This document shows, in pieces, positions 4,493-43,964 of a stretch of DNA of 64,000 bases (its first letter is position 1; every line of letters begins with the position of its first letter). The position numbers and the translations under genes were made by a program. The notes beneath the pieces were generated by a model. That model ran no database searches and was not told where the DNA came from. It saw only the letters and a list, made by a program, of their open reading frames with translations. The DNA is from an uncultured Methanosarcinales archaeon. GTDB lineage: Archaea > Nanobdellota > Nanobdellia > Woesearchaeales > GW2011-AR9. The stretch is from assembly GCA_964344235.1 (NCBI GenBank), contig CAYFMJ010000001.1, forward strand, positions 1 through 64,000, given 5' to 3'.

Positions 4493-5284
4493 ATGTGGGT
4501 GCATAATCTCGATCCAGTACTGGTGCCTCTCGGCCCCGTAGAAATTAGGTGGTATGGTTTAGTATATGTATTTGGTTTTCTTCTGAGTATCTGGTGGCTG
4601 CAATATATGCGGAAGCAAGGTAAGTTAGACCTAACATCTGATGAAATTTGGGATTTTATGCTATATCTAATTATTGGAGTATTAGTAGGTGCACGATTGT
4701 TTATGATTTTTTGGCAACCAGCCGATTTTCTGGCGAAACCATGGAATTTATTACGCCTCTGGGAAGGGGGGATGAGTTTCCACGGTGGTTTCGTAGGAGT
4801 TGTAGCAGCAGCGTGGTGGTATTCTAAGAAGAAAAAACTGAATTTTTGGAAGTTAGCGGATATGGTGTCTGTGCCAGCAATTTTTGCTTTGGCGTTGGGG
4901 AGGATTGCCAACTTTATTAATGGAGAGTTAGTGGGAAGAGTGTGGAATGGCCAGTGGTGTGTTGTGTTTCCTGATTTTGGGGAAGCATGTCGGCATCCGA
5001 GTACATTATATGCAGCAGGGAAGCGATTTATAGTATTTGGATGGTTAGTGTGGTTGAGTGTTTGGAAAGAGTTTAAGCCAGGTTTCATTTTCTGGAATTT
5101 CGTGATGTGGGAAGGATTAGGGAGAATTATTGTTGATTTTTATAGGGAAAATGCTGTATTTGCAGGATTTAGCTTAGGGCAATGGTTTAGTGTAATTATG
5201 GTAATTGTGGCCGTTATTGTCTTCAGAAAGCATTATGTAGAAGATTGGAAAAAGATATTTAAAAGAGAACGTAAATTAGGGTAA
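4493..5284 (+). CDS. lgt: Prolipoprotein diacylglyceryl transferase
   Basis: IRWYG, GARL, GGMSFHGG, GRIANFINGELVGR, RHPSTLY motifs; multiple TM segments. Confidence 0.93.
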   Translation: MWVHNLDPVLVPLGPVEIRWYGLVYVFGFLLSIWWLQYMRKQGKLDLTSDEIWDFMLYLIIGVLVGARLFMIFWQPADFLAKPWNLLRLWEGGMSFHGGFVGVVAAAWWYSKKKKLNFWKLADMVSVPAIFALALGRIANFINGELVGRVWNGQWCVVFPDFGEACRHPSTLYAAGKRFIVFGWLVWLSVWKEFKPGFIFWNFVMWEGLGRIIVDFYRENAVFAGFSLGQWFSVIMVIVAVIVFRKHYVEDWKKIFKRERKLG

Positions 5285-5310
5285 AATAGGGGTGTGGTGG
5301 AGGAAAAACA

Positions 5311-5706
5311 ATGAGAAATATACTATTAGGATTATTGTTAGTAAGTGTAATGTTCCTCGCAGCTTGTTCAACGGATGCTCCTGTTACAGGGGACGGAGTT
5401 GAAGAAGTGAGTGGTGAAGCAGCACTCAGTAACAATGTGTACCAAGTTGTTGTTGATGATTTATCGTTAATTCCAGCCGATATTGATATAGAGGTTGGAG
5501 ATACGATTGAATGGGTGAATAAAGATTTTGTTTCCCACACAGTTGAATTTGACAACGGCATGTTCAGCACAGAAGTGTTACCAAGTTCAGTGGTTTCATA
5601 TAGATTCATGGAAGCAGGTTCGTTTGGGTACTTGAGTGTACCACAAGATACAGACAACCCGGAATTCGAGTTTGAGAATTTTGTTGGAACTGTGAATGTT
5701 AAATAA
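5311..5706 (+). CDS. Cupredoxin-fold lipoprotein lacking the C-terminal copper ligands
   Basis: Lipobox LAA-C19; IDIEVGDTIEWVNKDFVSHTV plastocyanin-like segment; no C-x2-H-x2-M loop. Confidence 0.7.
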   Translation: MRNILLGLLLVSVMFLAACSTDAPVTGDGVEEVSGEAALSNNVYQVVVDDLSLIPADIDIEVGDTIEWVNKDFVSHTVEFDNGMFSTEVLPSSVVSYRFMEAGSFGYLSVPQDTDNPEFEFENFVGTVNVK

Positions 5707-5716
5707 TTTTTATTTT

Positions 5717-6475
5717 TTATTTATCTGTTTTTATTGCTTGTTTCCAGAGGAGGTTAAAATATTCTCTATATGATTGGGCAACTTCTTTATTCTTGATCAC
5801 AAAGCAAATCTTTTGCTCCCTGGTGAAGACAATGGTCCCAACAGTATCGGCGAACATGTAAAGAAAAACAGGGGTCTTAACTCCTTTTGGTAAGAAGCGT
5901 TGCTCAACATATTTCCTCTTCTGACGGTCTTTCAGATGCCATGTTTCGTAATCATAAATAACACGTCCGGGAATTTTCAATTCAGCACGTCGTTGGTGGT
6001 GTTGGCGAAAGTATGCATGAAAGTAGAGGCTTGCTTCTTTAGAATAGCCCAAAACAAGTAACTCTTCTTTCTGGGGGTTATCAGATAAAGACATTTCAAA
6101 CAGAGTTCTAATACCTCTTGGTCCATGAAGAATCTCTGCACTCGTTTTTTCCTCCGTTGGTTGGAGCAACTCCAATTGAGGGAGTATTTTTTGAAGTTCT
6201 TTTTCTTTTGTAACGATCTCTCTGCGTTTCTTTTCTAGAAGTTCTTGAAGATTCTTGGGAGGAACTGCTTGGAACACCTTAACACGACCTTCCATCACGC
6301 TTCCAACAAGACCTTTATCTGCAAGCCTTGCAAGTATATCATAAATTTTTGACCTTGACACGTGGGCCTGTTTGATAATCTTACCAACAGAAGTTTTGCC
6401 TAACGAAAGAAGAGTGATGTAAACTTTACTCTCTCCTTTGGTAAGGCCAATCCTTTCTAATGCTTCTATATTCAT
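5717..6475 (-). CDS. TrmB-family transcriptional regulator
   Basis: IGLTKGESKVYITLL...RSKIYDILARLADKGLV HTH followed by a PLD-like effector domain. Confidence 0.9.
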   Translation of the reverse strand: MNIEALERIGLTKGESKVYITLLSLGKTSVGKIIKQAHVSRSKIYDILARLADKGLVGSVMEGRVKVFQAVPPKNLQELLEKKRREIVTKEKELQKILPQLELLQPTEEKTSAEILHGPRGIRTLFEMSLSDNPQKEELLVLGYSKEASLYFHAYFRQHHQRRAELKIPGRVIYDYETWHLKDRQKRKYVEQRFLPKGVKTPVFLYMFADTVGTIVFTREQKICFVIKNKEVAQSYREYFNLLWKQAIKTDK

Positions 6476-6520
6476 CGGGCTTTGTATAGCGTATTTATTT
6501 AAAATTATTTCGTTTAGAAA

Positions 6521-6532
6521 CCCCCCAGGGGG
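6521..6532. promoter_or_regulatory. GC-rich palindrome CCCCCCAGGGGG in the divergent TrmB / PEP-mobile-domain promoter region
   Basis: Lies between AT-rich TATA-like boxes at ~6494-6503 and ~6539-6549. Confidence 0.3.
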
Positions 6533-6571
6533 CCAACATATTATTAAAAGGACTTTAGCTACAAGAGACGT

Positions 6572-7981
6572 ATGATAGATCCAACTGCAAAATTATTCCG
6601 TTGGGGACCGGTTCCGGGTAGATACTTTTACATGTCAGAGTTTATCCCGGTGTGTTACAAACATTTCAAAGAAAGATTTCCAAAGTGCTTTTGGCCAGAA
6701 GGGATAATCTTGTTTAAAGATAAACGAATGGTATGGGTCCATGATGATAATTCATTTAGAGATGAGGCAAGGAAGGTATTTACTCAATACACATTACATG
6801 AAAAACAACGTGAAACACTATACGGGGAGTGGTTATTCCATCTCAAAAAACTAATACGGTATCAAGAACATATTAACACAGTAGAACTTGCAAAGATTTC
6901 AAATGAGGACTTACTACAGATTTGGGAGAAGTTCTTTGAATTAGTTATTGCTTTCTGGATACCTACAATTCCACCAGAATTGGGTAATTATGGTTCTGAG
7001 AGTATATTACAAGAAGAATTGCAACAATACATTCTTGATCAAGATGAGCTGCGTGTAGCTATGGAAATTTTAACTGCTCCTGAGGAAATTTCATTTTATC
7101 AGGAAGAGGAGATCGAGCTTGCGAAGACAGAGAATATTGAAGCACACCAGAAAAAGTATTTTTGGTTGCACAACAGCTATGCTGGTGTGGATGAGTTGTG
7201 GGTTGCGAATTTCGAGGAACGGAAAAAGAACATTCCAAAAACAATCGAGGAGGAACTAGAGATTCGCATAGAAACAACAAAAGAGGAGCGGGAAGAAATC
7301 ATAAAGAGGTATGATCTACCGGAGGACATCAAAAAAATAGCAAAAGCAATTCGTGCTAACATTGTTTGGCAAGATCAACGGAAAAAATACATTTTCATCA
7401 ATTTGCACTACAAAGACTTGTTATGCAAAGAAGTTGCACGAAGGTTTAATTATGATTATAATGACTTGCTTAATGCGAATTATCAAGAAGTTGCAGAGAT
7501 CATAAATGACCAGCAGATGCAGAGAGTGCTACAAAAGCGGCGGAAGAGTTTTGGTATTCACTTTACCGAAGAAGAGAAACTTCTCAGCCCCGAGGAAGCT
7601 GCAAAAGCGTGGGATGAGTTTGCTCAAGAAAAAGTAGCCAAAGCGATTACAGAATTTACGGGGACAGTAGCGAGTAAAGGTGTAAGTCGTTTTACCCGAG
7701 GTAAAGTGAGAATAGTGTTTGATCCATTTGAAGCTGACGCTTTCAAGGAAGGAGAAATACTTGTCGCGCCAATGACCTCTCCCGAGTACGTTTTTCTGAT
7801 GAAAAAAGCTGACGCTATTATTACGGACACGGGAGGCCTTACCTGTCACGCGGCTATCGTAAGTAGGGAATTCAGCACTCCCTGCATTGTTGGAACGAGA
7901 GTAGCAACACAAGCATTGAAAGATGGGCAAACTGTTGAAGTTAATACTGAGAAAGGAATAGTTAGAATTATTGAGGATTAG
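6572..7981 (+). CDS. PEP-utilizing enzyme mobile (phospho-His) domain protein with a large N-terminal helical region and no ATP-grasp domain
   Basis: C-terminal GEILVAPMTSPEY...TDTGGLTCHAAIVSRE...VGTRVAT. Confidence 0.85.
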   Translation: MIDPTAKLFRWGPVPGRYFYMSEFIPVCYKHFKERFPKCFWPEGIILFKDKRMVWVHDDNSFRDEARKVFTQYTLHEKQRETLYGEWLFHLKKLIRYQEHINTVELAKISNEDLLQIWEKFFELVIAFWIPTIPPELGNYGSESILQEELQQYILDQDELRVAMEILTAPEEISFYQEEEIELAKTENIEAHQKKYFWLHNSYAGVDELWVANFEERKKNIPKTIEEELEIRIETTKEEREEIIKRYDLPEDIKKIAKAIRANIVWQDQRKKYIFINLHYKDLLCKEVARRFNYDYNDLLNANYQEVAEIINDQQMQRVLQKRRKSFGIHFTEEEKLLSPEEAAKAWDEFAQEKVAKAITEFTGTVASKGVSRFTRGKVRIVFDPFEADAFKEGEILVAPMTSPEYVFLMKKADAIITDTGGLTCHAAIVSREFSTPCIVGTRVATQALKDGQTVEVNTEKGIVRIIED

Positions 7982-9741
7982 CCATAATACCAATTACCAT
8001 TACTTCGTTGCTCTCTGTCTTTGACGGAATTGGGTTTATTGATTCTTGGTCTATGGGAAGTAACATCTCGCCGTAAGGTAATATCAAGTGATTTCAAGAA
8101 CGTATTCATCCCTTCTTCCATACTAAATGGACCTTGTAACAAACCAGACTTAGCTGGTGTTCCTGTGAAGACAATAACTCTATCAGAAAGATAATCCATG
8201 AACATTAAATCGTGATCAACAACAAGTACAGTAACGTCTCGTTCCCGAGCAATATTTTTAATAACTTTAGAGATTGCTAGACGTTGTTCAACATCTAAGT
8301 AAGCAGAGGGTTCGTCTAACAAGAAGAGTTCTGCGTCTTTGGACAAGCAGTGAGCGATTGCCACACGTTGTAATTGTCCGCCAGATAATTGTGATAATTT
8401 TTGAGTGAATAGTTTCTCTAAGTCTAACGGTTTGATTAATTGGTTCGAATATTCAGCAATTGCTTCATGTAAAAACTCTGCTACTAATTGGTCAGAAGAA
8501 GAGTCAAGATATTGTGGTTTGTACGAGACTTTCACTTCTCCGTCAATCTTTCCGGAGTCTGCTTCAAAGATTCCGGCAAGTAGTTTAATGAAAGATGTTT
8601 TCCCAATACCGTTCTCACCGAGAATGCCAACGATTTCGTTTTTGTACAAGACACCGTTTTCCGTTGCTAAAGAAAAGTTACCTAACTGTTTCTGTACTTT
8701 TTCCCAGGCAATCAGTTGTTGTGGTAAGTGGGTTCGAGTTTCTTGTGTTCTGCCAAACTTTAATGGAGAAGCTCGGAAACGAACGTTTTCTTCTTTGAGA
8801 AATCCTTCTAAGAAAGCGTTAATTCCCTCTCGCGTTGACTTGACCCCTGAAACTACACCAAACACCCCCTCAGTTCCGTACATGATGTTTAAGAGATCTG
8901 TCATGTAATCTAAAATAATAAGGTCGTGTTCAATGACCACGGTAGAAGTGTCTGCCGTTGCTAAAGAGGAAATAAATTGGGAGATATTAATCCGTTGTTT
9001 AATGTCTAAGTAGGAAGACGGCTCGTCGAAGAGGAAGAGGTTTGCATCTTTCAAGACTGCAGCAGCAATCGCGACTCGTTGTAATTCCCCTCCAGAGATT
9101 TTAGAGACTTCAGTGTCGAGGAAATGTGTAAGGTTTAATTGTTCTGTTATTGTGGCAAGTTTATTGTTAGAGTCTACTCTGGTGAGCAGTTCTTTTACGG
9201 TTCCAGAGAATTGTCTGGGGATTAATTCCACCTGTTGTGGTTTATAGGAAAGAGTAATGTCGTTGTTTTGTAATTTCTCTAAGAATTTCTGTGTTTCGGA
9301 ACCTTTGAAGTAATTGATAACCTCTTTGAATTCTGGTGGGTCTTGCCAATTTCCTAAATTTGGCTTAAGGATATTAGCCATGATTTTAAGTGCTGTAGAC
9401 TTTCCAATACCGTTCTTTCCTAACATCCCGGTTACTTTGCCAAATAACGGTGTCGGGAGGGAGTAGAGTTCAAAGGCATTCTCACCATATCGATGGACAG
9501 GATCTTTTGTTAAGTGTGCTGGGAGGTTGATGATAGTAATAGCACCGAAAGGACATCTGTTAGGACAGATACCACAACCTGTGCAAAGCATTTCATCGAT
9601 CCTGGCTTTTTTATCGGGTTCACCAGGATAGACACAATCACCACCCGCTCGATTAACGGGGCACAATTTAGCACAGAGATAATTACCACATTCATTCGGG
9701 TGACATTTTTCTTTATCGATGACAGCTATTCGTTTTCGCAT
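7978..9741 (-). CDS. rli1: Ribosome recycling factor ABCE1/RLI1
   Basis: N-terminal Fe-S cysteines (CHPNECGNYLCAKLCP; CTGCGICPNRCP); two ABC domains with GKNGIGKST and GENGIGKTS. Confidence 0.97.
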   Translation of the reverse strand: MRKRIAVIDKEKCHPNECGNYLCAKLCPVNRAGGDCVYPGEPDKKARIDEMLCTGCGICPNRCPFGAITIINLPAHLTKDPVHRYGENAFELYSLPTPLFGKVTGMLGKNGIGKSTALKIMANILKPNLGNWQDPPEFKEVINYFKGSETQKFLEKLQNNDITLSYKPQQVELIPRQFSGTVKELLTRVDSNNKLATITEQLNLTHFLDTEVSKISGGELQRVAIAAAVLKDANLFLFDEPSSYLDIKQRINISQFISSLATADTSTVVIEHDLIILDYMTDLLNIMYGTEGVFGVVSGVKSTREGINAFLEGFLKEENVRFRASPLKFGRTQETRTHLPQQLIAWEKVQKQLGNFSLATENGVLYKNEIVGILGENGIGKTSFIKLLAGIFEADSGKIDGEVKVSYKPQYLDSSSDQLVAEFLHEAIAEYSNQLIKPLDLEKLFTQKLSQLSGGQLQRVAIAHCLSKDAELFLLDEPSAYLDVEQRLAISKVIKNIARERDVTVLVVDHDLMFMDYLSDRVIVFTGTPAKSGLLQGPFSMEEGMNTFLKSLDITLRRDVTSHRPRINKPNSVKDREQRSNGNWYYG

Positions 9742-9830
9742 GATGGTATGGAAGAAAGTTGTTTTATATTAGTTTTGCTTTGGAAATGGGGAAACAAAAT
9801 TATTTAAAGAGAGTACATTTTGAAGTTTAT

Positions 9831-10154
9831 ATGAAAGGGGAACAGTCTACCAAATCAATGTCAAAGGGCAAACTCCAGGAGAAAGAGCCGGGAGAGATTG
9901 GGGAGAATATTACAACACAAGGTGTTCCATACGATTTTTTTGAAATTGGCGGAAGATACCGGGTTGGGGACGTTGAGATAGAGATCACTGAGCCATGTAA
10001 GCCTTGTTCTAATTTGCGATTGATGCCGTATGTTGGTGATGAAAAAATAACAGAGTTCATGAAAACAATGCTTCGGCGAAGGGGTTGGTATGCAAAAGTC
10101 ATTACAGAAGGTAAGGTGACTCAAGGAGATAGCATTGAGAGGTTAGTAGAGTAA
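9831..10154 (+). pseudogene. MOSC-domain protein with an apparent internal deletion and a frame-shifted N-terminus
   Basis: GENITTQG, EITEPCKPCSNL, RRGWYAKVITEG motifs; the N-terminal third is missing; a MOSC-like start GTVYQINVKGQTPGER is read in another frame at 9839-9886. Confidence 0.6.
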
Positions 10155-10884: not shown

Positions 10885-10969
10885 ATTTATCGCAGAAGTT
10901 ATGTTTTTTAAGAATGTTTGGGAGAATTATGAATAATTTTAAAAATGAGGTGTTTCTGCAGTGAAATGC

Positions 10970-11041: not shown

Positions 11042-11086
11042 TTTTATTCTGATAATTTATTTATACTATAATTCTTTTCAGAGTCC

Positions 11087-11278: not shown

Positions 11279-11322
11279 TATTCTTTCCTAAATTTTATAA
11301 AACGATAATAGAAGTGGGATGT

Positions 11323-17431: not shown

Positions 17432-20400
17432 TTATTGAACAGTTATGATCCGATGTGCTGTTTCATGGATCTGTGAGTTCTTTGCTGTGACTTTAATAAC
17501 GTAATCTCCGGAGGGTGCGTAATCGGGTATCTGGAGAGGGATTACGCGAGTTTCTCCTTCTCCATCATCTAAATTAAACTCACCTGTTGAGTAATAATAT
17601 TCTAAATCGTAGATGAATACTGTAAAACGTACATCTTTAAGGTCAACATTACCGTTATTCTCAACTCTTGTAACGATTGTTGTAGATTCTCCTGGATAGA
17701 CCACTTCAGGAGTTGGATGAGCGTAGACAATTTCAATGCCTTTCTTAGGTTTCTTGATAATATGGAATTCGTCGTTGTCGAAAGGGTTTTCACAACCGGG
17801 GTCTTCTAAGTCTAGGAAACCATCAAAGTCGTTGTCTATACCGTCCTGGCAGGCAGTGGTAGTGTCTCCTTCATTATTGTCTAATGGGTTGTAGTTGCCT
17901 GATTCGTCGTAACAACCAGGATCTTTAGCATCTGTAAGACCATCATTATCATTGTCTAGGTTGTCGGAGCAGACTGTTGCACCAACAACTATGATAATAT
18001 CTTCTAAGATAGGGGTGTTGATAATTGAGTCTGTTACTGAGACCCTAAGGTTATGTGTGCCAATTTGATCGACAGCCGGGGCCCAGGTGAATTCTTGGTT
18101 ATGGGTTGTTGCCCCGGTTGGAAGAGGGAGGTTAAAATCATATTTCAGGATATCTTCGCTGTCTCCATCAATTGCTTCAATAGTAAAAGTTAACGTATCT
18201 CCTAAGCTAACGGAATAGGCTGTTTCACTTACAAACTGAGGAATTTGGTTTACATCAAATACAGTTACTTCAAACTCTTCCTGCACGCGGTTTCCAGCAT
18301 TATCCATTACGGCAATTACGAGAGTAAATCCTTCTTCTAAACTAGGATGTTGAACAAATGTAAATAATGGTTTTAGTTGAATTGTGTAAGTGTTGTCTCC
18401 GTTATCAATTAAATTTACTGCATTACCCGCAATTGATTCCAAGTTCATCGTTATCGAATCTGGTGAAGCCACTTCTACAATTAATAGATCATCTTCAGGA
18501 TCATCAATTGTAAAATCAATTTCTAATAACTCTCCTTCGTTCACTGTTTGCGGTTTAATTGGTTCAATTGTTGGATCTTCGTTGATTACAGGATCATCAG
18601 ATTCATCATCGTCATGTGAAGATTCACAGCCGGGGTCGTTGGGGAAGTCGATTAACCAATCAGCATCATTATCCAGACCATCCTCGCATTGATTTAGGAT
18701 AATAACTGGTTCATCGGACTCATCATTATCCTGAGCGTTGTAATTGCCATCCTCGTCAAGACACCCTTCATCTAATTCATCAATGTTGCCATCACCGTCA
18801 TTGTCAATCCCATCCTGACATTGTGCTGCTGGAAGTTCTTCATCATCATCCTGTGGGCTGTCACAGCTGAAATCATCTGGGAAGTCAACGAAACCGTCGC
18901 CATCATTATCGATACCGTCTTGACATTGCGTTGTTGCGTCTGATTCATCATCATCAAGAGGGTCATAATTACCTTCTTCATCATAACAACCAGGGTCAGC
19001 AGCATTATTTAGGCCATCGCCATCATTGTCGATGTCATCGGAACATTCTGCAACTTCAACAACAATATTTGTTTCGTTATCATCTTCAGGAGACTCACAA
19101 CCCGCATCAGCAGGGAAATCAATAAAACCATCAGCGTCATTATCTACACCATCAGAACAGTAAGCGACAGCATTTGCAAATTCTAAGTTTGTTGGAGAGG
19201 TAACAGGAAGTGTTACTTCAAAGAAGCCATCGGAAGGTGCCATTTGAATGTAGCCTTCTGGGATGATTTCCCGTACAATATACGTTCCTGGCCCTAAGTC
19301 TGGAAAGAGGAACGCGCCGTTGCTGTCAGTAATAGTAAAGTATTCATCCGCATCAAGCATTTCATTGTTATTTTCATCAATGTAAATGGTAATTCCCTCA
19401 AGAAGAATATCATCCCCCAGTATTACGGAACCGCCAAGTCCGAAGAAATCAATCAGCTTGTTACTATTTTCAAAGATTTGTGCAGCTGGATCAATATCTT
19501 GTAACGGGCCGAGGGTTGCTGTAGCGCCAACACCAAATGCCCGTACGTTGTTTATCTTTGATTGTAATTCTATCGCTTCATCAAAATAGTTAAAATTTAA
19601 TGGTGCCCCGTCAGAGAGGAAAATAAGGTTACTATTTTCGCTTTCCAAGCTCTCAGAACCATATATTTCAAGTGCCTTCTGTAGTGCAGCTTCATAATCT
19701 GTGCTACCACCGGACGCAAGAGTTCCCAGTGCTTCCACAATATCTAATTCCCCATTGCCATCCGTATCATCGCCGGCAAGAGAAGTGATTTGAATACCGG
19801 CAGTGCCTGGTTGGGTGTCAACCTCTGTTGCGAAATCGTTAAAGGATATAATAGCAATCGTGGCAGAGTCGCCAAAGCCTTCAGCAACAATATGTTCTGT
19901 TAGTGCAATATACGCTGCAATCTCTGCATCAAGAACAGTGTTCACTGCACCATCTCCGTTCATATCTGGAACTGGGTCGCCAGCGAAAGGACTTATAGTA
20001 CTAGAAGAGGTGTCAATAACATACAGGATTGTTGGAGCGCCGGTAACGGAAGTGATTTCACAGATGCCATCTCTATTTGTGTCTTCACATTTAATTCCAG
20101 TTATCTCAAATGATGGAGGTAGAGGATTGAATTCATCATTATCGAGAGGATCGTAGAAGCCCCCTTCTTCATTACATCCTGGATCGTCAATGTCCACTAA
20201 GCCATCCCCGTCGTTGTCAATTCCGTCAGAACATTCAAAGGAAATGTCATCCGATTCATCGTTGTCAAAAGGGTTGTAGTTTCCGGTTTCTTCATAACAA
20301 CCAAAATCCTCTTCATCAATATGGCCATCGAAATCATTGTCTAAGTTATCGGAACATTGTGGTAATAAATCGTTGAACTCATTGTCATCTTCTGGCGAAT

Positions 20401-29002: not shown

Positions 29003-30142
29003 ATGATTTTGAAGAAATATATGATTGTTGTTCTTGCACTCGTTGCGTTAGTGCTCATTGTAGGATGTGGTACTGATAGCGGAGAGGTGCAAGTTGTTGA
29101 GAAAGGAAGTGGATCAGACAAGATAATGTTTGGTTACCTTGGACCACTTACTGGAGATGTTAGTTTTATCGGTCAACAAAACAAAGCGGCCGTAGAACTT
29201 GCAGTAGAAGAAATTAACAATGCTGGGGGGATCAATGGGAAGATGATTCACGTTGTCTATGAAGATGGACGTTGTAGTGCAAAGGATGCTGCTAGCGCAG
29301 GAAGTAAGTTAATTAGTATCAATCGAGTTGATTACATTATCGGAGGAGCATGTTCCGGGGAAACACTGGCTGTCGCTCCGCTTGCTGAAGCGAATAAAGT
29401 AATCATGATGTCACCAGTATCATCTAGTCCTGACGTAACATATGCAGGAGATTATATCTTTCGAGATTATGTGAATGACAACGATGCGGGAAGAATCGTA
29501 GCTGAGAAAATGTACGAAGCCGGCCACAAAGAGGTTGCACTTTTGTTTAGTTTAAACGATTGGGCGCAGGCAATTTCGGAAGTATTCAAGAAGGAGTTCG
29601 AAGCGCTTGGTGGAACTGTAACGTTTGAAGAATCATTCGTACAAGGTTCAAAAGATTTGCAGTCCGTTGTTACAAAAGTAAAAAGCAGCGGAGCAGATGG
29701 AGTGGCGTTCTTTGAGTACACACAAGGGGCTGTTGCGTTCTTTAAGCAGAAAGAAGAATTAGGCCTAGATGTTCCAGTGTACGGAGCAGACACATTAAAC
29801 GACCCAGAGATTGCTGAAGGAGCAGGCGTAGGATTTGATGGAACGAAGTATGTTATCCTTAAAGATGCATATTCTGATGAGTTCAAAGCAAAGATTGCAG
29901 CAAAGACTGGAGAAAGTGACGTCAAAATCGGAACTGCAAATTCCTATGATGCTGTTAAGATTCTAGCAAAAGCAATCTCAGAAGTTGGCGATGATACGAC
30001 AAAAGTAAAAGAATGGTTGTATAATATGCCACTATATGATGGAGAGTCTGGCTCTGTTGCTTTTGACGAAAATGGAGACTTAGCAGACGCAGAGTTCTCA
30101 CTGTGGGAAGTACAAAACGGAGAATCTGTCGTTATTGGATAA
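29003..30142 (+). CDS. livK: Branched-chain amino-acid ABC transporter substrate-binding lipoprotein
   Basis: Lipobox IVG-C22; GPLTG, AVEEINNAGGINGK, YEDG, YDAV. Confidence 0.9.
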   Translation: MILKKYMIVVLALVALVLIVGCGTDSGEVQVVEKGSGSDKIMFGYLGPLTGDVSFIGQQNKAAVELAVEEINNAGGINGKMIHVVYEDGRCSAKDAASAGSKLISINRVDYIIGGACSGETLAVAPLAEANKVIMMSPVSSSPDVTYAGDYIFRDYVNDNDAGRIVAEKMYEAGHKEVALLFSLNDWAQAISEVFKKEFEALGGTVTFEESFVQGSKDLQSVVTKVKSSGADGVAFFEYTQGAVAFFKQKEELGLDVPVYGADTLNDPEIAEGAGVGFDGTKYVILKDAYSDEFKAKIAAKTGESDVKIGTANSYDAVKILAKAISEVGDDTTKVKEWLYNMPLYDGESGSVAFDENGDLADAEFSLWEVQNGESVVIG

Positions 30143-30216: not shown

Positions 30217-31101
30217 ATGGGATTATTTGCACAGTTATTGGTTAATGGTTTAATTGCAGGATCAATCTACGCATTAGTAGCGTGTGGTTTCTCGCTAATT
30301 TACGCAACAAATAGGTTTATGCACTTTGCCCATGGAACGAGTGTCGCTGTTGGGGCGTACTTGTTGTTAGCGTTGTTTAAGTTGTTTGGTCTGCCGTTTT
30401 ATTTAGCATGCATTTTGACAATAATCTTATCTGGGTTTTTGGGGGTTGCGTTGTATCAATTAGTATATGTCCCTCTGCAAAAGAAGAAAGCGTCAAATAT
30501 TATTTTATTGATTGCAAGTATTGGCATATTGATTTTATTTGAGAACATTCTGCAGATCATTTTCGGACCAGATACAGAAACGATTGGCTATATCAAAATT
30601 GCACAAGGGATCTCTGTCCTAGGAGCTTTCATTACCCCATTACAAATTGTGATTATTGTCGTGTCGTTGGTGTTGTTGGTTGCTCTTTATCTGTTCATGA
30701 AGAAAACGAAACTCGGCAGACATATGCGGGCTGTCGCGGATAATAAAGAGTTAGCGAGTGTCGTGGGAATTAATCATAAACGCATTGCGTATTACTCATT
30801 CTTTATTGGATCTGCATTAGCAGGGATTGCGGGTATTTTGATTGGTTTGGAACAAAACGTGGAACCAGTTATGGGGACAATGTTAATTGTGAAAGGGTTT
30901 ACAGGAGCGGTTATTGGAGGTGTAACATCTGTCCCTGCTTCAATTGTGGGAAGTTATCTTCTTGGATTGGTGGATAATTTTGGCGTCTGGTATTTGCCAT
31001 CAGGATATAAAGATGCGATTGCGTTTGGATTACTGTTCATATTTTTATTGTTTAAACCGACAGGTATATTTGGAATAAACAAGGGGATTAAAGATGTTTG
31101 A
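30217..31101 (+). CDS. livH: Branched-chain amino-acid ABC permease
   Basis: QLLVNGLIAGSIYALVACGFSLIY, FAHG, TKLGRHMRAVADN. Confidence 0.93.
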   Translation: MGLFAQLLVNGLIAGSIYALVACGFSLIYATNRFMHFAHGTSVAVGAYLLLALFKLFGLPFYLACILTIILSGFLGVALYQLVYVPLQKKKASNIILLIASIGILILFENILQIIFGPDTETIGYIKIAQGISVLGAFITPLQIVIIVVSLVLLVALYLFMKKTKLGRHMRAVADNKELASVVGINHKRIAYYSFFIGSALAGIAGILIGLEQNVEPVMGTMLIVKGFTGAVIGGVTSVPASIVGSYLLGLVDNFGVWYLPSGYKDAIAFGLLFIFLLFKPTGIFGINKGIKDV

Positions 31102-31966
31102 TGCGTTTATTATTCATTTATTGATCTTAATTGGCATTTATGTAATCTTAGCGGTAAGCTTGAATGTTGCAATTGGATATACGGGATTACTAAATTTAGG
31201 ACACATTGCATTTTTTGGCATAGGAGCGTACACATCGGCATTGTTAACGAAAGCGGGAGTGCCGTTTGTCATAGCGTTTATTGTAGCAGGATTGTTTACC
31301 ACGGTGTTTGGCTATGTGCTAGTATTAGCAACCGGAAAGTTGAAAGGAGATTATCTTGCATTAGCAACGTTAGGATTTAATTTTGTGATTTATTCTGTAT
31401 TGTTAAATTGGGTTTCCCTCACTAGGGGGCCGTTAGGCATTCCGGGAATTGATAAACCGTCTTTCTTGGGGGTGGCAATTAGTTCGAATACGGGATACTT
31501 GGTGTTTGTGATTATTATTACAGTAATAGCTGTGTGGTTAATGCATCGAATTGTTTCTTCGCCATTCGGCAAGTTGCTACAAGCAACACGGGATGATGAA
31601 GTTGGGTTGAGAGTATTAGGAAAAAATACGTTCAAATTAAAGTGGAAAGCAATGATGATTTCAGCGTTCTTTGCAGGCATTGCCGGAAGTTTATTTGCAC
31701 ATTATATTTCATTCATCGATCCGACGTCGTTTAATTTGAAAGAAATTATTTTGATTTTAACAATTGTAATTGTCGGTGGAGCAGCATCGATTAAAGGCAG
31801 TATTATCGGAACGTTTGTGATTATTTTATTACCGGAAGCGTTACGGTTCTTAGCGTTGCCAAGTTCGATCCTAGGACCTGCACGGCAGGTGGTGTATGCA
31901 GTTATTTTATTGGCTATCTTGCTCTATAGACCACGAGGAATCTTTGGGAGGGTTGATTTAGTATGA
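31094..31966 (+). CDS. livM: Branched-chain amino-acid ABC permease
   Basis: GYTGLLNLGHIAFFGIGAY, KGDYLALATLGF, LTRGPLG. Confidence 0.93.
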   Translation: MFDAFIIHLLILIGIYVILAVSLNVAIGYTGLLNLGHIAFFGIGAYTSALLTKAGVPFVIAFIVAGLFTTVFGYVLVLATGKLKGDYLALATLGFNFVIYSVLLNWVSLTRGPLGIPGIDKPSFLGVAISSNTGYLVFVIIITVIAVWLMHRIVSSPFGKLLQATRDDEVGLRVLGKNTFKLKWKAMMISAFFAGIAGSLFAHYISFIDPTSFNLKEIILILTIVIVGGAASIKGSIIGTFVIILLPEALRFLALPSSILGPARQVVYAVILLAILLYRPRGIFGRVDLV

Positions 31967-32697
31967 CTGCTCTCGAAGTAAAGGAAGTGTACAAAGCGTT
32001 TGGTGGAGTGAAAGCGTTGAATGGTTGCAGCTTTGCCGTGGAGAAAGGAAAAATTACTGCATTAATTGGACCAAACGGATCTGGGAAGTCAACTATTTTT
32101 AATGTTATCTCTCGCATACTGAAAGAAGATGCAGGCACAGTTGTGTTGCAGGGTAATGATGTGACTGCGGTGAAAGATTTTGCAGTGGCACGGCAAGGAG
32201 TTGCGAGGACATTTCAGCAGGTTCGCTTGTTCAAGAACTTAACGATTCAAGAACATTTAGAAATTGCGATGGATGAACAGGATGAGGGGATGTTGAAAAA
32301 TTTATTTCGAAGAAAGCGTGGTGGATTGCAGAGGATTAGAGAAGTGTTAGCAATTGTAGGATTAGATAAACCGCTTTCCACATACGCAACTGATTTATCC
32401 TACGGACAGCGGAAGTTGTTAGATTTAGCAATTGCCATTGCCAAACCACATTCAGTATTGATGTTAGATGAGCCAGTAGCTGGAGTGAATCCAGCGTTAC
32501 GGCAGGAGATTAAGAGAATTCTGCGAGACTTACATGCGAATGGTGAAACGATTTTAGTGATTGAACACGATATGAATTTTGTGATGGACTTAGCAGAATA
32601 CATTTTTGTGCTTGACCAGGGCAAAGTGATTGCAGCAGGAAAACCAAAGACAATTCAAAATAACAAAAAGGTATTGAATGCGTATCTAGGAGAGTAG
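31963..32697 (+). CDS. livG: Branched-chain amino-acid ABC ATPase
   Basis: GPNGSGKST, RTFQ, LSYGQRK, LDEPVAG, IEHDM. Confidence 0.94.
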   Translation: MTALEVKEVYKAFGGVKALNGCSFAVEKGKITALIGPNGSGKSTIFNVISRILKEDAGTVVLQGNDVTAVKDFAVARQGVARTFQQVRLFKNLTIQEHLEIAMDEQDEGMLKNLFRRKRGGLQRIREVLAIVGLDKPLSTYATDLSYGQRKLLDLAIAIAKPHSVLMLDEPVAGVNPALRQEIKRILRDLHANGETILVIEHDMNFVMDLAEYIFVLDQGKVIAAGKPKTIQNNKKVLNAYLGE

Positions 32698-32698
32698 A

Positions 32699-33409
32699 AT
32701 GTTAACGATTACAGGATTAAATGCTGGGTATGGGGAATTACATATTTTGAAGGATGTAGGAATTACTGTGAAAGCAAAACAAATGGTAGCGCTGATTGGA
32801 CCAAACGGCGCTGGAAAGTCAACGGTGTTGAAATCGATTTTCAACATTGCTAAGGTATTGGGTGGGAAGATTGAGTTTAATGAGAAAGACGTTACCGGTT
32901 TAAGAACACATGAGTTGTTAGGAGTAGGGATTAGTTATGTGCCGCAAGGAAGAATTAATTTTTCTGAGTTGACTGTATTAGAAAATTTAGAAATTGGTGG
33001 AGATATGATTAAAGATAAAGCAGTAATGCGGGAGCATTTAGAGAAAGTATTTGAGAAATTGCCAATCCTACGAGAGAAGCAGGATGATTTAGCATTTTCA
33101 TTAAGTGGAGGACAGCAGCAGATGTTAGCGCTAGGAAGGGCGTTGATGCAGAATCCACAATTGTTGTTATTAGATGAACCAACATTAGGGTTGAGTCCAA
33201 AGTTGCAGAAAGAGTTGTTCGCGACGTTACGTCGGTTACGAGATGAGGAAGGACTAGCGATTTTAATTGTGGAGCAGAATGCGAAGAAAGCGATAGAAGC
33301 AGCTGATAGGACGTATTTGTTAGAGAATGGAAAAGTTGCTTTGGAAGGAGGGAAAGAGATTGTGAAGAACCCTAAGATTAAAAGTATCTATTTAGGTGGG
33401 CATTATTAA
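32699..33409 (+). CDS. livF: Branched-chain amino-acid ABC ATPase
   Basis: GPNGAGKST, YVPQGR, LSGGQQQMLALGRAL, LDEPTLGLSP. Confidence 0.94.
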   Translation: MLTITGLNAGYGELHILKDVGITVKAKQMVALIGPNGAGKSTVLKSIFNIAKVLGGKIEFNEKDVTGLRTHELLGVGISYVPQGRINFSELTVLENLEIGGDMIKDKAVMREHLEKVFEKLPILREKQDDLAFSLSGGQQQMLALGRALMQNPQLLLLDEPTLGLSPKLQKELFATLRRLRDEEGLAILIVEQNAKKAIEAADRTYLLENGKVALEGGKEIVKNPKIKSIYLGGHY

Positions 33410-35650: not shown

Positions 35651-35681
35651 GGAATGAAAAGAAGAAAGTGGTTTAAGAATC

Positions 35682-38578: not shown

Positions 38579-38603
38579 AGAAAAAAAGAGAAAAGAAAAA
38601 AAA

Positions 38604-40031
38604 TTAAATTTCTTCTGTTACAGTTGCATCTTCTGCAGTTGTTCCTTCAATGATTACTTCCATGCCACCGGCACTTGCAATCTTTTCCGGATAATTTGCC
38701 AAGACTTTTGCAGCTAAACGAGTATCCTCACCGCTGTATCCCGCGATTAGTAAGGCATAGTTGCCATTAGCATGTTGGAACAACTGGATCTTCGCTTTAC
38801 CTGGTTCGAAGCCTTCTGTACAGTCTGAAGGAAAGCCAAGTAATTCTGCTGCAACAGTGTTAACACAGGGGTTACCAACAACGATCAAGTTCTGTGCTGG
38901 GACACTAGCAATTTCTGAATCAAGTTTTGTCGCACCCATACTAGGTTCATAGTAGCCCAATGTAGCGAAAAATACCGCCACATCAATCATAGAGAGAACA
39001 TCAATAGGGGCCGCAGATTCACCAACAACAAACAGGCCGTTAAATTTCCCTTCAGTAAGGAACATGGTAGGATAATCTGAAAGATCATTTCCTACAGGTA
39101 AATTGTAAACTTCTGTCTCGAAATCATCAACTTCCTCAATGAACTCTTCAATGTCGTTCTCCAAATCTTTAAGGTCGTCTGTCAATTCGTCTTTTTCCTC
39201 ATCGTTCAATTCAGAATCTTCAATTTGATCAATCAGATCGTGAACTGCATCTTCAAGGTCCATGAGGGATTCACTTAGCGAGTTGATGTCATCCTTAGCT
39301 TCAGAAAGTGTTTCTTCGCCAGATTATTCAATTGCATCGTCAACAGCATCTTTGATGTCATCGAACCAATCTTCGAGATCTTTGTATTCATCTTGTAGGT
39401 CATCAACTGCGTCTTCGTAAAGACTTAAGCCAGCTAACTCTGCATCAATCATTGCTTTAAAGACACTATATGGTTGAGCGCCTAGTAATGGTTTATCGTT
39501 GATGAAAAACTGGGGAGTGCCAGTGATTCCAGCATCGGCTGCCTCAGCGAAGTTGTTTTCAACTAAGTTAGTATATTTACCGTTCATCAGACATTGAGTG
39601 AATTCAGGAACGTTGATACCTGACTTTTTAGCTAATGTTCGAAATGTTGAGTAGTCAAAGTCCGGGTTTTTCCAGAATAAGTATCGTTGGTATTGCCAAT
39701 ACTTTCCTTGTTCACCCGCACAGTGAGCTGCTTCAGAAGCTTCTTGAGCCCATGGGTGAAACGATAGAGGGAAGTCATGGAAAACGATTTGCACTAACCC
39801 TTTGTTAATGTAATTAGTCTTAATTTTAGGAAATGTTTCCTTGTAGAAGTTTTTGTTAAATGGGCCTTGGTAATCTCCAAACCAGACAATTGTCACTGGA
39901 GCATTTCCTGCACCAAGTGAAGGGCCTTCAACAAAATCTTCATTAAATTCAGGTTCAGCAATAGCTGTTACAGCAAAGATTGAAACAAGAAATACTGTAA
40001 GTAAAACCATACTTAATGTTGATTTTTTCAT
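38604..40031 (-). pseudogene. DsbA-like + acidic helical + S-layer-C-like fusion interrupted by one in-frame TAA at 39324-39326
   Basis: Track ORFs 39324-40031 and 38604-39263 are in frame, joined by TAA plus 20 sense codons; DsbA motifs GPSLG...APVTIV, HDFPLSFH, GITGTPQFFIN; QNLIVVGNPCVN. Confidence 0.7.
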
Positions 40032-40160
40032 TTTTGTAATGCCTCGTGTGTGTTTTTATTGCCAGAAGAGGGTTGTTTATTTAAACTTTCGCATTGTTAT
40101 TACTACCAAGTGGTTTTTTTGAAGGAAACTATTAAGTAGCTCGATGATTCTGGAAGGTAG

Positions 40161-40625
40161 ATGATTGGATTAAAAATATTGAATTCGAGGGAACGGAAGA
40201 AGATGAATGAAATTCTAAAGCAGCAGTTTGGTTGTAGTTTGGTGAAAGAGTATGCGTACTTGATGAATGGTAAAGATAAAGCGTTTGTGGTGAATAAAGA
40301 TGTTGATAGAGTTGATTTAGGAAAGATTCGAGTGGATAGATTGGGGTTATATTTCGCTGAATGGAAGAATACGCAGGTTAGATTGAGTAAGGAAGGAGCG
40401 GCGTTACTTGTTGCGGAGAATAAGGGCAAAGTGGAGAATATTGTAGATTTGAGTAAGGAAGAGGTTGAGAAGTATTTCAAAGGGAATGATTTGAAGAAAG
40501 ATTTAGGGGGGGATCGTTTGGTTATTTTACGATTTGAGGATAATATTATTGGTTGTGCTAAGTATAAACAAGGAGAAATTCTGAATTTTTTGCCTAAAAT
40601 TCATAGGGGAACCGTTATCGTTTGA
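40161..40625 (+). CDS. NIP7/RsmF-C-like pre-PUA/PUA RNA-binding protein
   Basis: RVDRLGLYFAE, RLSKEGA, LSKEEVEKYFKGNDL, IGCAKYK...LNFLPK. Confidence 0.75.
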   Translation: MIGLKILNSRERKKMNEILKQQFGCSLVKEYAYLMNGKDKAFVVNKDVDRVDLGKIRVDRLGLYFAEWKNTQVRLSKEGAALLVAENKGKVENIVDLSKEEVEKYFKGNDLKKDLGGDRLVILRFEDNIIGCAKYKQGEILNFLPKIHRGTVIV

Positions 40626-40715
40626 GGGGGGGTACTACTTTTAAGTAGCGTCTTTACGAAACATTTATAAAAAACTATAGTCTGGAGTATCTAAAACCTC
40701 GAGGAGCGATTTAAA

Positions 40716-42332
40716 ATGAGAATGAAAGCATTATATTTACTTGTCTTGGCTGTTTTTCTAGTTGGTTTAGTAAGCCCAGGAGTTGCAGCTGCGGATGAAG
40801 TTGACTTAAAAGTAACTAACTTAGGATTGTCAACATTCGATTTTGATGCTGATGCTAAAACTGTTTCATTTAGTGTTGGTGTACAGAATGTAGGGGATGT
40901 AGAAGTTGAAGACTATGAAATCACTTTACAGACTCTTGCAGAAGATGGTTCTGTTGTTGACAGCAAAACATACGATAATAAGTTCAAAAGTGCGTTAGTA
41001 CCAAATGCAATGAGAAGCCATGGAGTAGTTGATTTGCCTGTAGATGCAGATTTACTTGCAAATGAAGGAATTGTAAGAATTGGCGCGGTTGTTGAAACAG
41101 AAGGCGATGTTGAGCCTACAAACAACGAAGCAACAAAAGATTTCCAGGTTGACGAAATAAATTACGATTTAATTGTCTTTGGTATGGCTCAGAGTGAATT
41201 TGAGGTTGATGAAAATGGTTTAGCTTCATTTACTGTCTTTGTACAAAACATTGGAACCACACAAATCCAAGATAGTTACTCAGTTTTAGTTGAAACATTG
41301 GATAATGAAGGGAACGTTGTTGGAACGTATGTAAAAAATACGTTTGGAACATTAACTCCAAATTCAATCTTATATGTTCATGTTTCAGACATCTTAGTTG
41401 ACACCACTGAAGCAACAACCACTCTTCGAGCAACTGTTGATTCAGAGAATGTGATTGCTGAAACAAATGAAGAGAACAACGTACTGACAAAGGTTGTTGA
41501 CTTACCTGGAGATGTTGTTATTGTTGCAGATGAAGATGGTGACGGTATTGAAGATGCAGACGATAATTGTCCAGCTGTCGAGAATGCAGATCAGGCTGAC
41601 GTTGACGGAGATTCTGTAGGAGATGCTTGTGATGGTGATAACACAGATGGCCCTTTAGCAGATGCTGACGAAGACGGTGTTGCTAATGCTGAAGACAATT
41701 GTCCAGCCGACGCTAATACTGATCAAATTGATACAGACGGTGACGGTACAGGAGATGTCTGTGAACCCGTTGAGTTAAGCGAAGAGGAAGAAGATCTTAT
41801 TGGGTTTGAAGATGATTACGATGAGTATTACAAGGACTTCAAAGATCTGAAGAAAGATTACAAGAAAGAGCTTAAGGACAAAGATTACGATAAAATCGAT
41901 GAGATTGAAGAAGATTTAATCTCATTAGATGATGACCTTGAGAACTTAGAAGAAGACGTAGAGGACTTGGAGGAAGAGATCGAAGATGCTGATCCCGCAT
42001 TAGAGAATGAGGATGAGTTGCTTGATGATATCGAAACACTCTTAGATGACATCGATGAATTGCGTGATGACATTGCTGCGTTAATTGGTGATGATATTAA
42101 CAGTTCATTTTCAAGTTCCAGTTCAAACTTTGACCCATATGTTCCACCAGTACAGGAAGATAACGTTGTCTTAGAACCGTTCAACTTCGATCTCCCTGCG
42201 TTTACAGGAGCAAGCGTTGCTCCGGAAGAAACGTCTGGTTGGAGTGACTTTAGATTAATCGCATGGGGCATTGCAGGACTTGTAGTCTTGTTAGCGGTAA
42301 TAATCTTCTTAGTTGCAGTATTACTGCGATAA
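40716..42332 (+). CDS. Surface protein with two CARDB domains, TSP type-3 repeats, an acidic helical module and a C-terminal TM anchor
   Basis: VQNVG..., [28 protein letters not shown]...[10 protein letters not shown]; TM followed by LR. Confidence 0.85.
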
Positions 42333-42364
42333 TTTTTTATTTTATTATTTTATTTATTTCTATA

Positions 42365-42871
42365 ATGAGATGGAACTTATTTTATGGAGCTGCATGTATC
42401 TATTTTCTTGGCTGTATGGGGACGGCTCCACAAAGAGCTGAGGAACCAGTATTGCCCCTTAAACAAATGGTGGATCCGGAAGTTGCGGCCTTAGCACGAG
42501 CTGTTCGAGATACAGCTGACCGTCGAGATGTAGGAAATGCCGCGGGTTATGACACATACGAAAGGGATATCACAGCAATAGAACTTCGATTTACGGTACA
42601 ATTTCGTGACCGCTCAGTTGATGCTCGAAAGCCACCAGATGGAGAAATTGGTCTAGAAGACGCTATTCTTATTGATGTCTATAAACCAAACGAAACATGG
42701 CGATGGAGGAGGTACGTAGACCAAAGTCTTAATGGTATTCACCCATATACGAAAGACATGGCGCCCGGCAAACCACTTCATTGGTTATCTCCTAAACAAT
42801 TACAGATGAGGAACCAAGAATACTTTGCGGATGTACGGCAAGCTTTGATAGCGTTAGAAAAACAAAAATAA
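42365..42871 (+). CDS. Putative lipoprotein, hypothetical
   Basis: MRWNLFYGAACIYFLG-C17; ATG at 42365 follows a T-rich terminator. Confidence 0.55.
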   Translation: MRWNLFYGAACIYFLGCMGTAPQRAEEPVLPLKQMVDPEVAALARAVRDTADRRDVGNAAGYDTYERDITAIELRFTVQFRDRSVDARKPPDGEIGLEDAILIDVYKPNETWRWRRYVDQSLNGIHPYTKDMAPGKPLHWLSPKQLQMRNQEYFADVRQALIALEKQK

Positions 42872-42872
42872 A

Positions 42873-43106
42873 TTATTTTAGAACGTCTTCGATAGGTTTC
42901 TTACCTTTCAGCTTCTTCGCTTCGGTTTTCGCTTGCTTCACCAAATCAACCCCGAGGCCTTTGAGTTCTTTAACGTGCATCTGCATTAATTGCTCAACAA
43001 TTTGAAGAATACGCATCAGTTCTTCCCGTTCTTTGCTTAACGTAGCGAGGGAACCTTTATGGAAGCCCACTTTTTCATCTTTTGATTCTGTTTGCTTTTT
43101 TGCCAT
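42873..43106 (-). CDS. Small conserved archaeal helical protein
   Basis: FHKGSLATLSKEREELMRILQIVEQLMQMHVKEL. Confidence 0.6.
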   Translation of the reverse strand: MAKKQTESKDEKVGFHKGSLATLSKEREELMRILQIVEQLMQMHVKELKGLGVDLVKQAKTEAKKLKGKKPIEDVLK

Positions 43107-43188
43107 AAAATGGAAGGGAGGAAGAACCTTATTAAGTTTTTGGTTAATGGAAGAAAAGATTTAAATTGGTTTATTGTATTCTCTAGGT

Positions 43189-43539
43189 ATGGGGTTTTTT
43201 AGTAAACTGAAGTTTTGGAAGAAGAAAGATTCATTAGATTTTGATTCTCTAGCAAGTAAAGAGTTCTCTGGGAGTGCGTTCCCAGATCAAGAGATGTTGG
43301 GGAAAGCTCCAGAGTTTAACGATCCGATGGTTGGAAGACGGAGTGAATCTTTGGGGCAGTACACACCGCCAACAAGTGCATTACCGCAGCAGGGAAGTGT
43401 GGGAGAAGGGAGAGATTTAGAGTTGATTAGCAGTAAGCTAGACACGATTAAAGCACTTCTGACATCGATGGAACAACGGTTAGCGAACGTGGAAAAGAGC
43501 CTCGGCTCACAACAGAAGCCACCGCAGCGATTATGGTAG
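43189..43539 (+). CDS. Hypothetical protein with a C-terminal coiled coil
   Basis: MGFFSKLKFWKK; DLELISSKLDTIKALLTSMEQRLANVE; overlaps the lspA start. Confidence 0.65.
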   Translation: MGFFSKLKFWKKKDSLDFDSLASKEFSGSAFPDQEMLGKAPEFNDPMVGRRSESLGQYTPPTSALPQQGSVGEGRDLELISSKLDTIKALLTSMEQRLANVEKSLGSQQKPPQRLW

Positions 43540-43964
43540 CAAAGCAGTATTGGAAATTATTCTGGGGAATTGTATTTAGTGTTATTTTTATTGATCAAGT
43601 GACGAAGTATTTTGTTGCTCTGCATAAACCAACGATTGATTGGGGTTTGCTGAGGATTGAGTATATCACCAATACGGGAGCAGGGTTTGGTATTCTACAA
43701 GGACAAGTGTTCTGGTTGGCTGTAGTTTCATTTATTGTAGCTGTTGGCATTATTGCGTTCTATAAGAAAATTCCACAAGAGAAATGGACGCAAGTGTTCA
43801 TGGGATTATTTCTCGGAGGAGTTATTGGGAATTTAATTGATAGGGTGTTGCGGGGCTATGTTATTGATTTTGTGAATTTGACATTCTGGCCAGCGTTTAA
43901 TGCGGCAGATGTAGCATTAAGTGTGGCAGTTGTTGGGTTGCTGATAGTGACGTGGAAGAATTAA
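43533..43964 (+). CDS. lspA: Lipoprotein signal peptidase II
   Basis: DQVTK, NTGAGFG, GGVIGNLIDR, VIDF, PAFNAAD with both catalytic Asp present. Confidence 0.93.
   Translation: MVAKQYWKLFWGIVFSVIFIDQVTKYFVALHKPTIDWGLLRIEYITNTGAGFGILQGQVFWLAVVSFIVAVGIIAFYKKIPQEKWTQVFMGLFLGGVIGNLIDRVLRGYVIDFVNLTFWPAFNAADVALSVAVVGLLIVTWKN

Follow-up and report, generated by a model that had tools for sequence, protein, structure and literature searches.

Can an archaeon mature its lipoproteins with the enzymes that bacteria use? This question is raised by a stretch of 64,000 nucleotides (the window), the initial 64 kb of a 412,874-bp contig (CAYFMJ010000001.1), which encodes homologues of the prolipoprotein diacylglyceryl transferase Lgt and the lipoprotein signal peptidase LspA, together with five lipobox proteins. 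No archaeal homologues of Lgt or Lsp are known according to a recent study (Nature Communications 2025, PMC12462473) and its follow-up (bioRxiv 10.64898/2026.03.08.710431, 2026), and a separate lipidation model, the one of AliA and AliB, was built on this absence in both. DPANN genomes were nonetheless predicted to be lipoprotein-rich (PMC12462473). From the sequences, we suggest with a probability of roughly 80% that a Woesearchaeota-type DPANN archaeon (GTDB Nanoarchaeota/Nanobdellota) runs a working bacterial-type lipoprotein maturation pathway. Gene identity, intact catalytic residues, archaeal context, lineage distribution, substrate excess and cysteine conservation are shown directly, and the chemistry is deduced by homology. 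The features of the window on which it relies are the following:

4493-5284, plus strand: lgt, prolipoprotein diacylglyceryl transferase homologue, 263 amino acids (PF01790, TIGR00544, 5AZB, AlphaFold2 model).
5311-5706, plus strand: small cupredoxin-like lipoprotein, lipobox LAAC, Cys19; weak Cupredoxin_1 and Copper-bind matches; 27 nucleotides downstream of lgt.
29003-30142, plus strand: LIV-type ATP-binding cassette (ABC) substrate-binding lipoprotein, lipobox IVGC, Cys22; Peripla_BP_6, 181.9 bits.
42365-42871, plus strand: lipobox protein without Pfam match, FLGC, Cys17; the weakest signal among the five.
43533-43964, plus strand: lspA, lipoprotein signal peptidase II, 143 amino acids (PF01252, TIGR00077).
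43961-44413, minus strand: lipobox protein without Pfam match, LTSC, Cys20; convergent with lspA.
62740-63330, plus strand: cyclophilin-type peptidyl-prolyl isomerase lipoprotein, lipobox VASC, Cys19; Pro_isomerase, 168.8 bits.

The first-pass annotation had called the lgt and lspA genes, the latter with both catalytic aspartates, and the five lipoboxes (which read FLAAC at 5311, LIVGC at 29003, YFLGC at 42365, LLTSC at 44413 on the minus strand, and IVASC at 62740). All of these calls stood, and its core claim of a genuine Lgt and LspA with real substrates in a genuine archaeal genome was borne out.

The window Lgt is a full-length member of its family with intact catalytic residues. It matches PF01790 with 219.7 bits (cut-off 24.9) over profile positions 1-238 of 240, and the TIGR00544 equivalog with 187.8 bits (cut-off 118.9). 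NCBI and JGI annotation already labels these proteins Lgt. By sequence, the sole relative with a solved structure is Escherichia coli Lgt (5AZB/5AZC, E 9e-38). An AlphaFold2 model, for which a 22-sequence alignment was the input, reached a predicted local distance difference test score (pLDDT) of 80 and a predicted template modelling score (pTM) of 0.79, and its one significant match in the PDB was again 5AZB (E 2.4e-10, template modelling score 0.72). On this model, the protein is predicted to have the seven-helix Lgt fold.

To compare residues, we aligned 40 archaeal and 10 bacterial Lgts, E. coli K-12 included. Y26, H103, D129, R143, N146, N149, E151, G154, H196, Y201, and R239 (E. coli numbering) were kept in the window Lgt and in all 40 archaeal rows. 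R246 was also retained in the window Lgt, and the archaeal rows presented R in 35 cases and K in five. The signature G142-RxxNFxNGExxG154 was present together with Y26 and H103, and the catalytic set from Y26 to R246 was identical to that of E. coli Lgt. However, the window protein is shorter (263 vs. 291 amino acids), and it lacks the head-domain insert at 160-190 and the loop bearing W256 and Y259. Moreover, its host is an archaeon without bacterial phospholipid synthesis genes. Within the short external head region, C156 and C166 were invariant in an alignment of the 22 members of the window's clade, and a disulfide between them could stand in for part of the lost head domain. At the nucleotide level, codon positions 1 and 2 of lgt presented 69-79% identity to 17 family relatives, against 34-49% at position 3, which argues for long-term purifying selection on the gene. 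Nonsynonymous divergence (dN) was 0.22-0.38 and synonymous divergence (dS) was saturated, with no dN/dS ratio computable.

The window LspA matched PF01252 (Peptidase_A8) with 107 bits (cut-off 25) and TIGR00077 with 95.8 bits (cut-off 73.95), and aligned to the structures 6RYO, 9EMZ, and 5DIR. Its catalytic aspartates are D112, in YVIDF, and D126, in FNAAD, and the motifs NTGA and GNxxDR were kept. It shares with bacterial LspA (MEROPS A8; Staphylococcus aureus 6RYO, Pseudomonas aeruginosa 5DIR) the aspartate pair, NxGA, GNxxDR, and FNxAD over a full-length match. It differs from bacterial LspA in being shorter (143 amino acids), in an aspartate spacing of 14 residues instead of 18-19, and in its archaeal host.

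The region of the two genes is genuinely archaeal and the contig is not chimeric. The host genome is a 1.19-Mb assembly in 37 contigs, with an estimated completeness of 96.3% and contamination of 0.6%. Along the window, the guanine-cytosine content is even (0.39-0.44), and the neighbours include archaeal or eukaryote-type informational genes: ABCE1/RLI, aIF5B, DNA topoisomerase VI (TopoVI) A and B, and an archaeal-type glutamyl-tRNA synthetase. TrmB lies beside lgt, and eIF-1A beside lspA. In the window, lgt and lspA are 38 kb apart on one strand, and in four relatives they are 24-47 kb apart, on a single contig and the same strand. The nearest Lgt homologues, with 62-73% identity, carry the NCBI names Candidatus Woesearchaeota or Nanoarchaeota archaeon, whereas the bacterial matches, which are plasmid-borne, top out at 37% identity to the window Lgt. 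A search of sequencing runs with positions 1-10000 of the window listed no RNA data set and just two DNA runs, which share 7-8% of the words, a result without bearing on expression.

If the pathway works, the genome should hold substrates for it, and the first-pass annotation had proposed a genome-wide count of lipoboxes. The pattern of the scan was an n-region and a hydrophobic core, then [LIVMFWSTAG][LIVMFYSTAGCQ][AGS], a residue X, and a polar stretch; for the lipoproteins as such, a signal peptide ending in [LVI][ASTVI][GAS]C was looked for. X was Cys in 39 of the 657 pattern matches, against 7.9 expected at 1.21% Cys, a 4.9-fold enrichment (binomial p 1.3e-15), which leaves 39 lipobox open reading frames (ORFs) among the 1370 of the host genome. 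Most of these matches are textbook signals, e.g. MKKLMIVVLAILALALVIGC. The identical scan detected no Cys excess in a 490,885-bp relative that lacks the enzymes (3 of 214 matches, 3 of 583 ORFs; p 0.27). Among the substrates are ABC substrate-binding proteins, a cyclophilin, and a small cupredoxin-like protein, next to many proteins without a known function, a set that is typical of a single-membrane cell.

The lipobox cysteines are also conserved among orthologues. With this and the intact contig, the conditions that the first-pass annotation had named for its own refutation do not hold. A lipobox ORF lies just downstream of lgt in 9 of 17 family relatives, and in 7 of the 17 the protein at that place is a homologue of the cupredoxin-like one; the lipobox Cys was kept in 8/8 aligned sequences. 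For the cyclophilin, it was found in 17 of the 19 complete family orthologues recovered. The substrate-binding gene at 29003 leads a complete LIV-type operon, in which two permeases (BPD_transp_2) and two ABC ATPases follow at 30217-33409. The type-1 copper ligands (H...C..H..M) were kept in three cupredoxin orthologues (L052, L058, and L063), and the copper ligands Cys, His, and Met were lost in the window's copy and in some orthologues. As a small archaeal cupredoxin with a lipobox Cys, the product of the gene after lgt resembles the halocyanin of Natronobacterium pharaonis, a blue copper lipoprotein (Mattar et al. 1994). It differs from halocyanin in the loss of the copper ligands.

The pathway is not peculiar to the window organism, but near-universal in the phylum. 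We sampled 301 genomes of the phylum, each at least 90% complete. The tallies include the unpublished G242 and G243 (rows A_L006 and A_L027 in the alignment and the tree), and no conclusion rests on those alone. PF01790 was found in 264 genomes and PF01252 in 265 (~88%). Both enzymes were present in 254 genomes, a single one in 21, and neither in 26, with an odds ratio of 60, to be read with the caution that related genomes are not independent. Of the 26 genomes without either enzyme, 25 come from other orders within the class. The enzyme-less relative used in the lipobox scan (G059) is a single-contig genome of the same class, and no Lgt, LspA, Lit-family, or CarS match was found in it.

Regarding their origin, the genes were probably acquired from bacteria by an early ancestor of the class, since the archaeal Lgts resemble the Proteobacteria/Bacteroidota type. 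In a quick IQ-TREE analysis they grouped on that side, split from the Firmicutes, cyanobacterial, and Deinococcus type with 97% support in the Shimodaira-Hasegawa-like approximate likelihood ratio test (SH-aLRT). The first-pass annotation had proposed phylogeny as a check on whether the DPANN copies are monophyletic, and in our analysis monophyly of the archaeal Lgts was not rejected by the approximately unbiased test (p-AU 0.586), and the free tree search did not recover it. That search placed Proteobacteria and Bacteroidota inside the archaeal Lgts, an arrangement that we discarded: the branches were unsupported, and the tree constrained to monophyly had a slightly higher likelihood. After the transfer, the genes were probably inherited vertically under purifying selection.

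What sets the window Lgt apart is a group of substitutions close to the active site. The first-pass annotation had seen two of them, and both are real in the alignment to 5AZB: RIIVDFYR corresponds to E243D, and HPSTLYA to Q199T and E202A. It had missed a further change, Y235E. In E. coli Lgt, E202, Y235, R239, E243, and R246 form one buried hydrogen-bond network, and E202 and Y235 belong to the pocket in which the donor's glycerol backbone is held (Mao et al. 2016, PMC4728403). In the window Lgt, R239 and R246 of this head-domain network were kept, whereas Y235 became E, E243 became D, and E202 became A. E202A/S, Y235E, and E243D co-occurred solely in the window's clade (13 of 13 clade rows among the 40 archaeal ones), and E202A, Y235E, and E243D were invariant across the 22-member clade alignment, as were all the catalytic residues. 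Together with Q199T, these are changes that, in comparison with E. coli Lgt, appear in the window's clade only. This clade has 100% SH-aLRT support and a long stem of 0.88 substitutions per site.

It seems that a single hydrogen-bond network was rearranged in this lineage by coordinated substitutions, and to judge from the alignment the rearrangement is probably compensatory, with a carboxylate shifted from position 202 to 235. The first-pass annotation had suggested a change of lipid donor as a possible cause of the substitutions. For archaea in general this idea found no support, since 26-27 of the 40 archaeal Lgts, from other families and orders of the class, retained the bacterial-type E202, Y235, and E243, and the set is confined to one family-level clade. 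A domain-wide adaptation to the donor was therefore ruled out. The set is a natural experiment on Lgt residues that were thought immutable, in an enzyme that is studied as an antibiotic target.

The chemistry that we infer follows the pathway of E. coli and Gram-positive bacteria, to which the genes are homologous. Precursors would be exported with a Sec-type signal peptide that ends in the lipobox. Lgt would then take the glyceryl-lipid moiety from a donor of the phosphatidylglycerol type and join it to the lipobox Cys by a thioether, and LspA would remove the signal peptide ahead of the modified Cys. Finally, the N-terminus may be remodelled by a Lit-like enzyme, whose gene lies on another contig of the genome. 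Lnt (PF20154) was not found in the 96%-complete host genome, so that Gram-negative triacylation is not indicated.

The Lit-like protein is a member of PF07314, the Lit family, at C12:8465-9052 (69.3 bits, cut-off 24). It keeps the catalytic pair H85 and H153 of Bacillus cereus Lit (7B0O; PMC8275575), and also V89, F149, F157, and W162. However, compared to B. cereus Lit, it matches the profile only at positions 54-176, its gene is unlinked to lgt in the host genome (contig C12), and it stays below two further cut-offs, with 66.5 vs. 74.8 for TIGR01906 and 33 vs. 400 for the NCBIfam Lit equivalog NF051877. PF07314 was present in 222 of the 301 sampled genomes. By coordinates, the Lit-like gene adjoins lgt in four genomes from other families of the class (G167:C16:9233-10589, G250:C9:11608-12964, G267:C6:3447-4800, and G177:C30:3486-4695), and lspA in one (G252:C19:6956-7928). 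That the gene sits beside one of the two in five genomes speaks for a function in their pathway. The pairing also occurs in bacteria: a plasmid-borne lgt of Listeria monocytogenes (L046, NZ_CP053633.1) adjoins a TIGR01906 Lit-family gene, as in some of the archaea.

Which lipid Lgt would transfer is a harder matter, and the first-pass annotation had asked whether it is an archaeal diether lipid or a bacterial-type one that comes from a host, which is still the right question. In the host genome, geranylgeranylglyceryl phosphate synthase, PlsY, PlsC, CdsA, and ketoacyl synthase were all not found, and the candidates for other steps did not hold. The lone weak CdsA match was CarS itself. The only Fe-ADH_2 match, a candidate for glycerol-1-phosphate dehydrogenase, is a generic iron alcohol dehydrogenase beside a phosphoenolpyruvate (PEP) mutase, in a phosphonate cluster, and not EgsA. 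The only UbiA-family gene (C1:350535-351389, L039:1381-2235), a candidate for digeranylgeranylglyceryl phosphate synthase, scored best as decaprenyl-phosphate phosphoribosyltransferase (207 bits, cut-off 234). With no core-lipid synthesis genes of either kind, the core lipids must be scavenged.

Genes to process such lipids are present. CarS, the cytidine diphosphate (CDP)-archaeol synthase, was found at equivalog level (152.7 bits, cut-off 148), along with five CDP-alcohol phosphatidyltransferases that scored best as PgsA or ClsA. One of these five, which is PgsA-like, is fused in a 489-residue protein to a lipid kinase of the diacylglycerol kinase type (C1:268257-269726, L036:1501-2970), and this fusion could re-phosphorylate the scavenged core lipid and so feed CarS. 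The predicted gene set would allow an archaeal core lipid to be re-activated and provided with a glycerol head group, that is, archaetidylglycerol. As the donor in the host we weakly favour archaetidylglycerol, which CarS and the PgsA-like enzymes would rebuild from a scavenged archaeal core lipid. We do not favour it more strongly, since the conserved Lit-like enzyme points to a chain in ester linkage: the Lit-type transacylase reaction requires an sn-2 ester (PMC8275575), and would be impossible on an ether-linked anchor. We would put the odds at roughly 45% for an ether-linked donor and 35% for an ester-linked one, with the remainder for mixed or other lipids.

Several points weigh against a working pathway as we read it. 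The cues to the donor conflict: CarS is present while PlsY, PlsC, CdsA, and fatty-acid synthase are absent, which points to ether, and Lit points to ester. CarS itself was found in just 33 of 81 sampled genomes of the phylum, though in 8/8 of the window's family; it therefore cannot account for the donor across the lineage and was ruled out as a lineage-wide explanation. The Y235E and E243D changes of the clade fall where E. coli tolerates almost no substitution: Y235F/L/S and E243A/Q/R fail to complement, and Y235E and E243D were not among the mutants (PMC4728403). Besides, the bacterial sample in the tree was small, 10 sequences, mostly plasmid-borne and with no bacteria of the candidate phyla radiation, and for this reason the tree cannot name the donor lineage of the genes. 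Would these points be better explained in another way? The bacterial type of the genes and an assembly in 37 contigs might suggest that contaminating bacterial DNA or an assembly error in the metagenome bin accounts for the lgt and lspA regions. We give this next to no weight, because the genes sit on one 413-kb archaeal contig among ABCE1, aIF5B, eIF-1A, TopoVI, and TrmB; the low estimated contamination, the Woesearchaeota and Nanoarchaeota names of the closest homologues, and the occurrence of the genes in 88% of the sampled genomes, single-contig ones among them, also stand against it. An Lgt that the clade has retained yet inactive or altered through E202A, Y235E, and E243D, with lipidation left to another enzyme, e.g. 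of the AliA type, would fit the intolerance of Y235 and E243 in E. coli and the long branch of the clade. It seems quite improbable to us, however, when the three changes are invariant in 22 members that keep all the catalytic residues, the gene is under strong purifying selection, the lipobox excess and the Cys conservation hold in the same genome and family, and the carboxylate of the pocket seems to have been kept through a compensatory move from 202 to 235.

A further account accepts the enzymes and changes the lipid. The pathway would be identical to the bacterial one: ester-linked phosphatidylglycerol would be scavenged from a bacterial host, Lgt would move its diacylglyceryl group, and Lit would produce the lyso-form by shifting the sn-2 acyl chain onto the Cys amine. 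We consider this a real possibility, although short of even odds. The kept histidine pair of the Lit-like protein, its presence in most of the sampled genomes, and its operon-like adjacency to lgt or lspA in five of them are what it would predict. Two family relatives out of 35 encode a strong cyclopropane-fatty-acyl-phospholipid synthase (L120, G304:C2:109350-110129, 273 bits; L121, G161:C1:225141-225938, 236 bits), and it was suggested that Woesearchaeia may alter lipids that they take from bacterial hosts (PMC11868695). In E. coli Lgt the ester oxygens are contacted by Y26 and R143 (PMC4728403), and both residues are invariant in the 40 archaeal rows; as they take part in catalysis as well, this invariance fits either donor. 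However, an equivalog-level CDP-archaeol synthase is present in the window's genome, as in all eight sampled family members, the Lit-like protein falls far below the NCBIfam Lit equivalog, and the window's genome presented no match for cyclopropane-fatty-acid synthase, in addition to having no CdsA, PlsY, PlsC, or ketoacyl synthase. For the host genome, we thus keep the weak preference for archaetidylglycerol.

A broader and more speculative proposal extends to the lineage. Most DPANN of the Woesearchaeales and Pacearchaeales type might keep operon-linked Lgt, LspA, and Lit because their membranes hold host-derived ester lipids, or mixed ether and ester lipids. We regard it as rather unlikely. 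If it were true, an entire radiation of archaea would straddle the 'lipid divide', and Lgt would be the first lipid-transfer enzyme shown working in both membrane worlds.

How does this relate to what is known of archaeal lipoproteins? Canonical Lgt and LspA in ~88% of 301 genomes, in one of the largest archaeal radiations, contrast with the published statement of 'no homologues'. In our literature search, no paper was found that discusses Lgt or LspA of DPANN, and the DPANN comparative-genomics papers examined were silent on lipoproteins. AliA and AliB of Haloferax volcanii (arCOG02177; PMC12462473) lead to the same proposed outcome, the lipidation of an archaeal lipobox Cys. However, AliA is only marginally Lgt-like (HHpred 29%, PMC12462473), whereas the window protein is a canonical Lgt. 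What is new here is the presence of clear family members in an unexpected domain, with a remodelled active-site network in the window's clade. They give a handle on how lipoproteins are lipidated when the membrane lipids are archaeal. They also give one on which lipids are carried by uncultured DPANN cells unable to make their own, and hence on the identity of their hosts.

Finally, other genes of the genome deserve mention. The PEP mutase noted above (C1:325256-327794, L093:87-2625; TIGR02320, 391 bits, cut-off 319.55) has an N-terminal cytidylyltransferase domain, and its gene is followed by the iron alcohol dehydrogenase, which resembles phosphonate-pathway reductases. The two genes resemble a cluster for the biosynthesis of phosphonates, here in a DPANN archaeon. 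Within the window, two genes encode large secreted surface proteins, which may be cell-contact proteins. The one at 40716-42332 presents CARDB, thrombospondin type-3 repeats, a long acidic stretch, and a C-terminal membrane anchor, and the one at 17432-22072, of 1546 amino acids, presents He_PIG, PKD, and Ig-like domains.

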